Below are positions 18,526-22,267 of a stretch of 41,838 bases of DNA, one piece after another (the stretch's first letter is position 1; each line of letters opens with the position of its first letter). The stretch comes from Chiloscyllium plagiosum (Eukaryota), in the NCBI RefSeq assembly GCF_004010195.1, contig NW_025214871.1, positions 2,555-44,392 of the forward strand, in the 5' to 3' direction. The position numbers and the translations under genes were made by a program. The notes beneath the pieces were generated by a model. It did not search any database. It was not told the DNA's origin and was given only the letters and a program-made list of their open reading frames with translations.

Positions 18526-19008
18526 TTATTGGACATTCATCTTTTCGAGTCCAGGAGCTACTATTTCTTGGAGGACCTTCTGCACTGCATCTCGGGTGGG
18601 GTGGGTGCGAGGCTGTACCACTATATTCACCTGTCTATAGATATCGGAGAAGGGTCTATCTATTCCACACCACCAGGCTTCCTCATCGCTCTTCTGAATC
18701 TTGGTTATTATTACCCTTGCCATGGCACCTCCTTGCTTGATAACAGGAAAGCGATATCCCGTGTCAGGTGTAACTGTAGCCGTGGTGGATACTACTAAGT
18801 GCCAGTAACTGAGTACACAAGGATCTCTGCGTAAATATTTTTTGACTTATTTATAGTCGTCCTGGTTACCAAACGGGCATGGGTGGCATGTAAAGGTCAA
18901 CTTAACATCCTTGGTTAAGATTACCGTCTGCGATTGTATCCCAGACACCCCTGCCTTCACGACTCGTCTTGCCATGCAGCCCCATATTTCTATGAGCCTT
19001 CTAATCAC
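18526..19008 (-). pseudogene. ERV-linked ORF remnant with signal-peptide-like leader and CD300/pIgR (CMRF35-like) Ig V-set domain
   Basis: One frame reads VIRRLIEIWGCMARRVVKAGVSGIQSQTVILTKDVKLTFTCHPCPFGNQDDYK*VKKYLRRDPCVLSYWHLVVSTTATVTPDTGYRFPVIKQGGAMARVIITKIQKSDEEAWWCGIDRPFSDIYRQVNIVVQPRTHPT... It has one internal stop at 18847-18849 and starts 10 nt after the integrase stop. Confidence 0.7.
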
Positions 19009-19017
19009 TACTTACAC

Positions 19018-20020
19018 TTATTTGGATCCGGTGTTGTCCGATGTTTCCTCAAGGTCAGCTACACGTTTGCAATGGCTGGCGTGTATCAACGTGGCTCTTT
19101 CGGCGATCTTAACAGCTGTCTGTGTTGTAGGGAGCCCTTGGAACGGTCCCCGGCAGCAATTCGCCTTCATGCTTTATTCCTGAAGTCTTTCACCACTATC
19201 CAGTGTTCAGGTTCTAGATTGTGCATCTTCCCTTCTGCTGATTGGGGTATTGCTGCCCTTCTTTTGATTCTGTATTTGAGACAGAAGTGTGGGGAGTTTT
19301 ATACCGTAACATAACATCTCGATCTCACAGTGGTCTGTTATCTGTCTTACAATCGGTCTTGGGCCAATTCCTGTATTGGGCCACCTTCCAAACAAAATCT
19401 CAAACGTCCTAAGATTTACTCTTCCTCTCCTTCATATACATTAGCACAATTGGAAATGACTTTGTCCATGTCACCTCTAGTTTCTCACAACATTTTGCCA
19501 ATTTGTTTATAAGGGTAGTTTTCTGTCTTTCCACTGCCCCACCGCTCGCTGGGTGATAGGCACAATGTTACCTCACCTTTATTCCCAAGTAATCACTGAT
19601 CTGCTGTAGGGCAATATTTAAAAATGGCTTTCCATTGTCGCTGCTTAGCCTTTCAGGGATACCCCATCTCGGAATTATTTCAGTTAGCAAAGCCTTGGCT
19701 ACCGCACTGGCATCCTGTTTAGACGTGGGAGCACTTCCACCCCTTCGGAAAACATCAACTATTACCAGACAATTCCTTTTCCCTTCGCTGGGTGTTAGTT
19801 CAATAAAGTCCATCTGTAAATGTTCAAAGGGTCTTTGGGATTGGGGGTGTTCTGCCTGATTCATTTGTATTCCCCTCCCCACATTATTAGTGGCACAGAT
19901 AACACATTATTCACATTATTTTAATGAGTAATGAGTAAATCCCTTTCTGTACCAGCGTGCTGAAATATTGTCGTATATCTCCACTTTTGACACATGGTCC
20001 TTACCGTGTGTTACTTTGGC
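19018..20020 (-). mobile_element. pol: Endogenous retrovirus integrase (decayed)
   Basis: HGKDHV...C..CVIC (HHCC region), PFEHLQMDFIEL, CLVIVDVF, EIIPRWGIPERLSSDNG, HCAYHPASGGAVER, and the C-terminal TATAVKIAERATLIHASHCKRV, ending in TAA at 19018-19020. Confidence 0.95.
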
Positions 20021-20199
20021 ATAGAAAGGGAATAAAGATCGTGTAGACAGGGTTTAGCATTGGGGCCACACCACATCCATTCCCTCATTCTGCACCCTGC
20101 CCTTGTCCATTCACGCTTCTCCTTCGAAGTGGCTTGTGACTGTACCTCCCATAAGTCTGCTTTGGATTACATTTATTTGACATACACATGCCAAACTCA

Positions 20200-20727
20200 T
20201 CACTTGGCGGCTGATTGGCTGCCGTCCTTGGCGCTCAGTCTACCGTTTCATTGCCTTGAGAAATTGAATCATAATCTTTCCTGTGGGCTTCACATGTACA
20301 TATAGTGATTGATTTAGGCAATCGGACTGCTTTCAGGAGGTCAGAGATCAGGCCATGTTATGTAATTGGCTTGCCAGTGAAGGTCAAGAAGCCCTTGTTT
20401 TTCCACAGGGATCCAAAATTATGTACAACCCCGAATGCATATCTGCTGTCGATGTAAATATTCACTGTTCTTCCTTCGGCCAATTTACATGCCTCAATCA
20501 CGGCAATCAGCTCTGCTGCTTGCGCTGACAGATGAGAAGGAAGTGATCCCGCTTTGACTCCTTCGTGGGTAGTTGCTACAAAATACCAGACACTGGCCTA
20601 TCTCTTTGCTTCTGAATGCTGACCTATCCACAATAAAACGCCGTATCCAGATTCTAAATTGGTGAATCCTACACGTCTGGTCTCGGGCTTCAAATGTCTT
20701 TATTACAGCGACACAGTCATGTGGGTC
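20200..20727 (-). mobile_element. pol: Endogenous retrovirus RNase H (decayed)
   Basis: PHDCVAVI, FIVDRSAF, SAQAAELIAVIEACKLAEGRTVNIYIDSRYAFGVVHNFGSLWKNKGFLT. Confidence 0.95.
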
Positions 20728-21420
20728 TAAGAACTTCAACTGTTGTTCCACAAGTTGGAGTTTTGCGAGACTAGATGGCAGAGCGTCGCAAGCCTACCTT
20801 TCTCACATTGTTTCTCTGTTGATGCTGCGATTAAGCATTAGTTTACATACTGCAGAAGCGCTGACCCCCCCGGTTAAAACAAGAGTCTCCAGGCTCCTGT
20901 GTAGTGCCTCTTTAATTATGGTGGGGACTCACAGTAATCTTGAAAATGTCACGTGAAAGTATACTATTGACCTTTGAATGTAAAAGTGAACCAGAATTGA
21001 CTGTCGGCGTGTAACGGTACACAAAACAAGGCATTTGCTAAATCCACAATAGAGAGCCATTCACATCCGATGGAATTTGAGCCAATATAATATAGGGGTT
21101 GGGAACATTTGGGGCGTGCGGAACAACAGCGTTCTTGATAACCCGCAGGTCATGAATAAACCTCCATTCCCCCGATTCACCTGGAATGTTTGCCTTTTTG
21201 AACGAAAAAAATGGGTGTTCTCACCAGTGATTATTCACGGGGGATTATCACTCCAGCCTATAAGAGAGATTCAAAGACTGGAGCAATTCCTTGCACAGCA
21301 TCTGGTTTTAACGGCTCTTTTGCTTTGCAACGACGATACTCAGACTTCGGGGTTATTCTTAAGGATTCGTATGAGCCCCACATCGTGTTTGCCTTTTGCC
21401 CTGAAATCAGTTGGGACCCT
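20728..21420 (-). mobile_element. pol: Endogenous retrovirus reverse transcriptase, gamma/epsilon-like, decayed and internally deleted
   Basis: AKGKHDVGLI, WRFIHDLRVIKNAVVPHAPNVPNPYIILAQIP, VDLANALFCVPLHADSQFWFTFTF, DYCESP, ALLQYVN* (ex-YVDD) and LAKLQLVEQQLKFL. Confidence 0.92.
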
Positions 21421-21559
21421 TCTTGGATCCGAGGCACCTACCATACGTAAACGCCAGGCGACACTCCTGGCGGGGATTACCTGGACTGTCCTGTCTGCCT
21501 GAGTTAGCCGATTTAGTTTCTTCCTATACGTCCTTATAACTGCATTGAAGCAGATAACC

Positions 21560-21950
21560 ACACCGACCCTGAAGATACAGTCTTTCGTTTTTTGTGCCTG
21601 TCGTACCCATGGTCCCAAATTCTGACACCTGTCGCTGGATGCCTTCGCCAATGATCCGTGAGGAAAAGAGCCTTCCACATCAAAAAAACAGGGTCTACTT
21701 ACCGTCACAGATACTTAAAAAAGTTTAAAGTGACAGCCCATCTGTGATCATTCCAATAAAATTCGCACAATAACAACTGATCTGGTTTAACCAATCTCCT
21801 GAACCTTTCCTTCTCTTATGATTTGTCAGGACCATCGCGGTGTATGTGTGCTGTGCAGTGCAGCATATCTCCAGCAAGAAAATCGGTGTTAATGGGATTA
21901 ACATGGCTACTTGCTTCCTGGGTGAGTGAATCGCACATGGAACCTATCGC
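21560..21950 (-). mobile_element. 2H-phosphoesterase-like domain within ERV pol, between protease and RT (decayed)
   Basis: Motif 1 is DMLHCTAHI (HCT at 21852-21860). Motif 2 is FPHGSLAK...QNLGPWV (HGS at 21652-21660). The histidines are ~66 codons apart, with a stop and a frameshift between them. Confidence 0.7.
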
Positions 21951-21989
21951 TCTCTGACATGCATCAGCGGTCGTGATTCGTATTTTCCA

Positions 21990-22267
21990 GCCTGCACTAT
22001 TAAATCTTCTTTTTGTATTGCCTGCAAGCCCGTCGGGGTACTGCGCAAATCCGACCCCAGTCTCACTATGAGATCCTGAGACATCAGATTTACAGAACAG
22101 GATTCCGATAACAGAAATGAGAATTGGAATATTTCCCCATTACTCGTTTCGCACAATAGGGGTGCGGTAAATCTCTCTCGTGTCACGACTCCTGACGCAC
22201 CCATTGAGTTCAGGAAGCTTCCGTTCATCTTTATTGCGTCGACTCTCTGAACTGCCTTGATTTATGA
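21990..22267 (-). mobile_element. pol: Retroviral aspartic protease C-terminal half (cut by N gap)
   Basis: SMGASGVVTRERFTAPL...FSFLLSESCSVNLMSQDLIVRLG matches the CPxNLLGRDL motif. Confidence 0.85.

Follow-up and report, generated by a model that had tools for sequence, protein, structure and literature searches.

A decayed class I retrovirus in a shark, with a CD300-like immunoglobulin domain at the likely start of its envelope gene

What kind of retroviral element carries both a 2H phosphoesterase domain and a V-type immunoglobulin (IgV) domain, and do the two belong together? The question is raised by a locus of the shark Chiloscyllium plagiosum, within a 41,838-nucleotide stretch of contig NW_025214871.1 (positions 2,555 to 44,392) that we refer to as the window and number from its first letter. 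On the minus strand, between positions 22261 and 18526, a decayed retroviral pol is followed by an Ig domain in the order protease (PR), 2H, reverse transcriptase (RT), RNase H (RH), integrase (IN) and IgV. An earlier sequence-only reading had proposed a complex epsilon-like shark retrovirus and an undescribed system, with the 2H as an intracellular nucleotide-signal antagonist and the IgV as an Ig-receptor mimic. We consider it probable that the locus holds the dead remains of a class I fish/shark endogenous retrovirus (ERV), with a CNPase-like 2H domain in pol of the kind usual in its clade and an IgV behind the integrase that is likely the N-terminal domain of a truncated gamma-type envelope protein (Env). 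Read this way, the new part is a likely CD300-like envelope head and not a two-cargo immune system.

Relatives were collected through the integrase; of 666 candidate proteins, 83 matched at E ≤ 1e-10. The nearest of them, P0146, has the Pfam domains RVP, RVT_1, RNase_H, rve and MLVIN_C and matched the window by tblastn with sum E values of 1e-106 and 1e-166. Intact relatives aligned colinearly along the minus strand, with PR at 22261–21923, 2H at about 21950–21472, RT at 21368–20728, RH at 20727–20163 and IN at 20160–19036; the IgV begins 15 bp past the IN stop. Both unusual domains thus belong to the virus and lie in one colinear minus-strand retroviral remnant, as had been proposed. The parts of the element are as follows (SU and TM are the surface and transmembrane subunits of Env; LTR, long terminal repeat).

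22268..23214, no strand: assembly gap; the PR catalytic motif would fall here, perhaps a gag remnant too
21950..22261, minus strand: C-terminal part of the retroviral protease (tblastn, 47–50% to P0027/P0146)
21472..21950, minus strand: PR–RT insert, a CNPase-like phosphoesterase of the 2H type, broken over two frames; its motif His are at 21860 and 21660
20728..21368, minus strand: N-terminal part of RT, interrupted by stops and frameshifts; its YVDD motif, near 20849–20838, is broken
20727..20728, minus strand: junction of the internal RT deletion; ∼226 codons of thumb/connection gone
20163..20727, minus strand: connection remnant and RNase H (57% to P0146 residues 881–1023)
19018..20160, minus strand: integrase with zinc finger, core and C-terminal domain (Pfam rve E 6e-14; 68% to P0146); stop at 19020–19018
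18526..19011, minus strand: likely 5' end of env, with a decayed signal peptide, a CD300/pIgR-like IgV and ∼25 codons of linker, then cut
17545..18525, no strand: unassigned DNA beyond the env cut, with diverged copies in related species and neither an SU/TM nor an LTR signal

The window copy is dead. Its pol reading frame changes at least eight times and holds many stops, and the deletion in RT, measured on relatives, joins residue 607 of P0146 to 834 and residue 243 of P0004 to 470; contigs from other species show joints and loose ends at the same place. The PR catalytic motif falls in the assembly gap, the P0146 alignment beginning at residue 73, beyond the DSGA of that protein at residue 65. 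The sequence-only reading had missed the internal RT deletion, the broken YVDD, the placement of the PR motif in the gap and the frame changes. It was right that gag, TM and LTR are not visible: relatives gave no gag match by tblastn on the window, 15 frames of the flanks gave no Pfam match, the Env profile matched nowhere in the window, and no repeat connects the two flanks. A primer binding site, a polypurine tract and gag were likewise not found in the window, and no accessory open reading frame (ORF) was seen there. A purine-rich minus-strand tract at ∼18483–18463, just past the env cut and followed by TG, is a possible polypurine tract, but no rise in depth and no repeat marks an LTR there.

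The RT was too broken for tree building, so placement was done on IN only, in two quick trees (the first leaving out 21 of the 83 IN matches as too short). P0004/P0146 and a pair of ERV proteins from Scyliorhinus canicula, P0005/P0006, form a group with the window (SH-aLRT 97). It is nested in a 20-row fish clade (support 97) made up of class I elements from teleosts and chimaera, apart from the gammaretrovirus isolates. L011, which we take to be a virus like walleye dermal sarcoma virus (WDSV) partly for its layout of env plus two ORFs, forms a clade of its own with L004 (100), outside that of the window. With its pol order PR-RT-RH-IN and its class I relatives, the element is, on sequence grounds, a class I (epsilon-related) fish/shark ERV remnant. 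It does not group with WDSV-type pol, no accessory ORF was seen, and the Env relatives are gamma-type in look, which sets it apart from Epsilonretrovirus proper (WDSV and walleye epidermal hyperplasia virus, WEHV). "Epsilon-related" is therefore a fair label and agrees with what had been claimed; "complex epsilonretrovirus" is not supported.

What is the Ig domain behind the integrase? The window IgV has Cys at 18888 and 18669, holds one internal stop and lacks the first Cys of a CxxxC pair. Searched by itself it is weak (Pfam V-set E 0.045; best PDB E 0.02–0.06), and a word-index search with it gave no match. A phmmer search returned 57 matches at E ≤ 1e-3, among them 53 V-set proteins; the four non-Ig repeat proteins (P0107, P0113–P0115) were removed before a tree was inferred. 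The best per-domain matches, P0089 (63 bits), P0091, P0094 (Callorhinchus), P0096 (Xyrichtys, CAJ1069847.1) and P0103 (45.1 bits), are all single-IgV proteins and form one group. Together with P0125 (Callorhinchus) and P0134, these fish/chimaera proteins join the window in a clade of eight rows (SH-aLRT 99), separate from 46 host-type CD300/pIgR domains. Several of the relatives are short IgV-only ORFs. In the viral and prokaryote contigs scanned, no IgV relative with DNA context was found.

The domain has the marks of a CD300/pIgR-like V-set: the B and F Cys are kept in the window, and the CxxxC pair, half lost here, is intact in relatives. A model of the P0096 IgV came nearest to CD300a, CD300lf, CLM-1 and pIgR (Z 12.2–11.4, tied within 1), with the receptor-binding domain (RBD) of EnvP(b)1 at 9.8. 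It does not look like a host CD300/pIgR receptor gene, since it falls in a separate clade and no transmembrane segment stands behind the window IgV.

Its position and its relatives point to env. The signal-peptide region of P0096 aligns to the window from 19005, 15 bp past the IN stop, and no intron precedes the V domain; the place directly after pol and the signal peptide, here decayed, are those of a gamma-type Env. Behind the linker, a helix is common to four of the seven IgV-clade relatives, and in P0096 the helix is followed by CWVC and ∼190 further residues. The C-terminal region of P0096 scored 11.5 bits against a profile of 12 isolate SU C-domains, which none of 500 shuffles reached (maximum 6.2). 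Its SU part had no PDB sequence match, and its model has pLDDT <50 for residues 227–425. The tail of P0103 scored 20.7 bits against the Env TM profile (0 of 500 shuffles; the next of 58 proteins, 4.1). P0103, 204 aa long, has a signal peptide and IgV joined straight to an Env-type membrane anchor and tail. It reads as an Env with an internal deletion, one that would present its Ig domain at the cell surface. Neither an immunosuppressive domain (ISD) nor CXnCC was found in any IgV relative or in the window, P0103 having the anchor and tail only. A likeness of the post-IgV stretch in the window to an SU helix, noted by eye, was dropped when a profile search gave no support.

The place of the IgV at the start of env, and the gamma-type Env parts found in its nearest relatives, make it a likelier candidate for the N-terminal domain of an Env than for a separate Ig-receptor mimic carried as cargo. 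Most likely it derives from the host and headed a gamma-type Env, here truncated ∼25 codons on. By analogy of position, it would likely act in receptor binding or cell attachment.

The second unusual domain turned out to be a familiar one. The insert between PR and RT is ∼160 codons long, and its two halves, lying in different frames, matched a profile of relatives with E 9.5e-13 and 8.4e-14. Its two HxT/S motifs, ∼60–70 residues apart, are HCT at 21860 and HGS at 21660, and both His are invariant in 12 relatives. As judged by motifs, 12 fish pols reach from PR to RT, and every one of them carries the 2H; seven of these were profile seeds, and the five not used for the profile all carry it. 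Pfam and PDB sequence searches did not recognise the 2H sequence, a word-index search with the first half gave no match, and the profile found nothing in isolate pol ORFs (best 0.1 bits). Members of this fish ERV clade normally carry a 2H, and fish retroviral CNPase/2H domains were already published, going by parts of PMC9503650 (on the WDSV 2H) and PMC4977317, so that the 2H does not make the locus an undescribed system.

The insert of a teleost relative, P0017, gave an AlphaFold model of pLDDT 95. Among PDB structures, Foldseek ranked CNPase and goldfish RICH first (E 4.5e-6). VIA comparison with CNPase gave Z 16.2 (rmsd 3.0, 160 aligned), with the next at 9.9 and below; the viral and phage 2H proteins scored 9.0 (Acb1), 7.2 (mouse hepatitis virus, MHV, ns2), 6.5 (rotavirus VP3) and 5.6 (poxvirus cGAMP phosphodiesterase, PDE). 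As modeled, the fold resembles CNPase far more than it does the 2-5A/cGAMP phosphodiesterases, and the claim of a nucleotide-signal antagonist loses ground accordingly. To our knowledge teleosts lack OAS and RNase L, for which we found no citable paper. Together with the fold, this makes a role as 2-5A antagonist less likely. The domain would most likely open 2',3'-cyclic phosphate RNA ends, of the tRNA primer or the genome, and not destroy 2-5A.

Among viral models, the best named matches of P0017 were the WEHV1 and WDSV "Envelope polyprotein" (E 1e-8 and 4e-8). The 2H profile likewise matched the C-terminal part of env in L011 (E 1.4e-4), with both histidine motifs visible. There, in the Env ORF at L011:5962-9648, the 2H occupies residues ∼1025–1115 of the Env C-terminal part and is not in pol. 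The domain sits in Env of L011 and in pol here, suggesting that it moved between the two genes. Flanked by PR and RT, the window type of 2H would be released in the virion; in L011 it would lie in the likely cytoplasmic tail of Env and face the virion interior too. That both placements would face the virion interior narrows the function of the 2H, for which our literature search showed no published test. The 2H and the IgV need not cooperate, the one being an old clade-wide feature of pol and the other a feature of env.

We then turned to copies of the locus in other species. Three coded species (X1, X2 and X19) hold 28%–38% of the sampled words. Contigs 10%–13% diverged from the window cross the junction of IN stop and IgV in two of them (X1 record 1, X19 record 12), so that the junction is a family trait and not a one-off neighbourhood. 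In X1 and X19, the summed depth across 16600–22260 is in the thousands, which is not the same as copy number, and in X2 it is ∼24–97, single-copy-like. Contigs of X1 and X19 reach depths of ∼900–1100 at the RT junction and the env cut or directly beside them (1128 at the RT junction in X1), against ∼16–25 for ordinary contigs. Depth at both deletion sites indicates that the doubly deleted form, RT-deleted and env-truncated, was amplified in some species together with its non-coding flanks. One metagenome scan gave three short ERV loci, without the region behind IN.

The tRNA genes around the locus (10447, 12416, 13729 and 23637) and the nearby tandem duplications suggest passive segmental copying; the alternative is a non-autonomous ERV subfamily. 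In some related species the deleted form later multiplied, likely carried along in the tRNA-rich repeat region or as a non-autonomous element. Two features border the locus.

17356..17544, no strand: very high-copy repeat fragment (depth ∼25–500× that of neighbouring bins), presumably a SINE/LINE 3' end
23637..23727, plus strand: tRNA(-like) gene just past the gap; the locus sits among tRNA genes

Elsewhere in the window, tRNA or tRNA-like genes lie at 10447–10528 (Ser), 12416–12488 (Arg), 13729–13810 (Ser) and 4960–5043 (Pro; ARAGORN only). Several are within duplicated blocks, and the region resembles a tRNA cluster. A 2.3-kb unit is present in tandem duplicate at 1785–6287 (94%–97% identity), with inverted segments at 2728–2944 and 5029–5270. 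A 1.5-kb repeat pairs 15096–16597 with 6292–7785 at 72% identity and has a third, partial copy at 41187–41819, and 573 bp are tandemly duplicated at 38405–39508 (98% identity). By eye, the ORFs at 11355–11987, 14098–14655 and 26071–26605 look like fragments of CR1-type LINE ORF2.

How well does the reading of a truncated gamma-type Env hold up? Several observations weigh against it. A carp host-type domain ties the fifth IgV match (45.0 vs. 45.1 bits), and the clade members P0134 and P0125 score under several host CD300-like domains. The IgV tree is a quick one, made with no bootstrap, and has long branches for the window and P0134. Evidence for SU comes from one of the seven relatives and evidence for TM from another one, and when the C-terminal part of P0096 was compared with SU C-domains by hhalign, the match was weak (probability 3%, E 0.014). 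No protein found has IgV, SU and full TM (ISD/CX6CC) together, Pfam finds no Env family in the IgV relatives, and the window has neither SU linker nor CXXC remnant. The IgV relatives, known as proteins alone, are presumed retroviral. As for the 2H, two pols outside the count of 12 lack it, P0012 (which has no PR either) and P0083 of the opossum; the CNPase fold comes from a teleost relative and not from the split copy in the window, and a fold does not fix the substrate.

Four other explanations have to be weighed against that reading. The truncated form itself (signal peptide, IgV and stop) could have been kept and spread as a secreted, receptor-blocking or immune-modulating factor, much as the feline truncated Envs Refrex-1 and FeLIX. 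The contigs ∼900–1000 deep over the truncation site in two species, beside the depth of the RT junction in X1, and the short IgV-only ORFs among the relatives would fit such a factor. Yet the window IgV has an internal stop and has lost a conserved Cys, pol pieces and non-coding flanks are equally amplified, the depth in X2 is single-copy-like, and the site among tRNA genes fits passive segmental amplification; summed depth is not copy number. We think this explanation unlikely. It is very unlikely that the element was a complex retrovirus in which two accessory proteins, a 2H degrading 2-5A/cGAMP and a free-standing mimic of an Ig receptor, were selected together as antagonists of immunity. 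Both domains are indeed colinear in one element, the IgV is CD300-like, viral 2H proteins include antagonists of RNase L and CBASS that the P0017 model matches at Z 5.6–9.0, and some viral 2H domains counter immunity, according to a part of PMC9503650. However, the 2H is clade-wide in teleost ERVs and much nearer CNPase, the OAS/RNase L pathway is one that teleosts seem to lack, the nearest IgV relatives carry Env parts, and no accessory ORF was seen.

A CD300-like exon or pseudogene of the host might also have lain next to the insertion site of the provirus, or have recombined with it. Host-type CD300/pIgR domains make up 46 of the 53 Ig proteins from phmmer, and no SU stands behind the IgV in the window. 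This is nevertheless highly improbable: signal peptide and IgV are contiguous and intronless and begin right behind the IN stop, the IgV groups with the Env-like set, and diverged copies have the IN–IgV junction in common. Finally, the IgV could have headed a paramyxovirus-F-like (lokiretrovirus-type) Env, given how frequently pol and env recombine in anamniote ERVs, as part of 10.1101/2021.11.23.469661 has it. The gamma-type features of the nearest IgV relatives (CXXC, SU C-domain and TM tail) leave that idea hardly any room.

We favor, then, an IgV that headed a gamma-type Env. In an ancestor of this virus group, a V exon taken from a CD300/pIgR-like host receptor would have come to follow the env signal peptide, the place of the RBD in gamma-type Envs, so that it likely served cell attachment. 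Ligands of CD300 receptors include membrane lipids such as phosphatidylserine. We see an even chance that a fish/shark retrovirus lineage made a captured CD300/pIgR-type V domain the attachment head of a CXXC-bearing gamma-type envelope, which may bind membrane lipids such as phosphatidylserine, and truncated copies of which, like this one, may have yielded a secreted soluble form. Intact IgV domains exist in relatives and could be used for binding tests. The captured domain is still recognisably host-derived and would therefore offer a snapshot of how IgV-fold retroviral RBDs arise.

How does the element compare with known systems? Epsilon-like fish ERVs with a CNPase/2H domain were reportedly described by Basta et al. 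in 2009, and Mazumder et al. in 2002 is said to be a source for the WDSV 2H, as cited in PMC4977317 and PMC9503650, respectively. With the epsilon-like class I fish ERVs, the window shares a class I pol with a CNPase-like 2H, and its IN nests among teleost and Scyliorhinus ERV proteins. It differs from the WDSV-like L011, which has its 2H in the C-terminal part of Env, in that its 2H lies between PR and RT and the copy is dead and RT-deleted. The catalytic domain of vertebrate CNPase and fish RICH shares the modeled fold and the two HxT/S motifs (Z 16.2), whereas identity is only 10%–13%, Pfam and PDB give no sequence match, and the viral 2H lies within a polyprotein. MHV ns2, rotavirus VP3, Acb1 and the poxvirus cGAMP PDE have the 2H superfamily fold in common with it, at far lower structural scores (Z 5.6–9.0).

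On the envelope side, parts of the literature describe gamma-type Envs as common in fish ERVs with epsilon-like pol (PMC9967133), and pol and env as recombining often in anamniote ERVs (10.1101/2021.11.23.469661). P0096 has the order of a gamma-type Env with RBD-C, such as those of murine and feline leukemia viruses and EnvP(b)1, namely, signal peptide, IgV-fold domain, linker, CXXC and C-domain (as given in part of PMC9967133). RBD-C is a heavily modified IgV without the canonical disulfide, whereas the P0096-type domain has the canonical form of a CD300-like V, with Z 12.2 for CD300a and 9.8 for the EnvP(b)1 RBD. No account of a CD300-like domain in a fish or CXXC-bearing Env turned up in our literature search; supplements and repeat libraries (Repbase/Dfam) could hold one.

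The nearest precedent for a CD300-like Env domain is the SIRP-like RBD. A preprint (Hoetzel, bioRxiv 10.1101/2024.03.17.585361) describes, in the part of it considered here, SIRP-like RBD-C captured into alpharetrovirus-like mammalian Envs without CXXC, and no such new RBD among CXXC-bearing Envs; the words "fish," "teleost" and "shark" have 0 occurrences in its main text, and its section 10 states the host Ig origin of the gamma-type IgV-like RBD as unknown. Going by that part, both cases have a canonical host IgV with the B–F disulfide, at the N terminus of Env and alignable to a host immune-receptor family. What sets the present case apart is a CD300/pIgR-like donor, a host range of sharks, chimaera and teleosts, and the CXXC of the best relative. 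If true, such a CD300-like head on fish Envs with CXXC would mean that a host Ig domain was captured a second time, independently and in the main gamma-type class.

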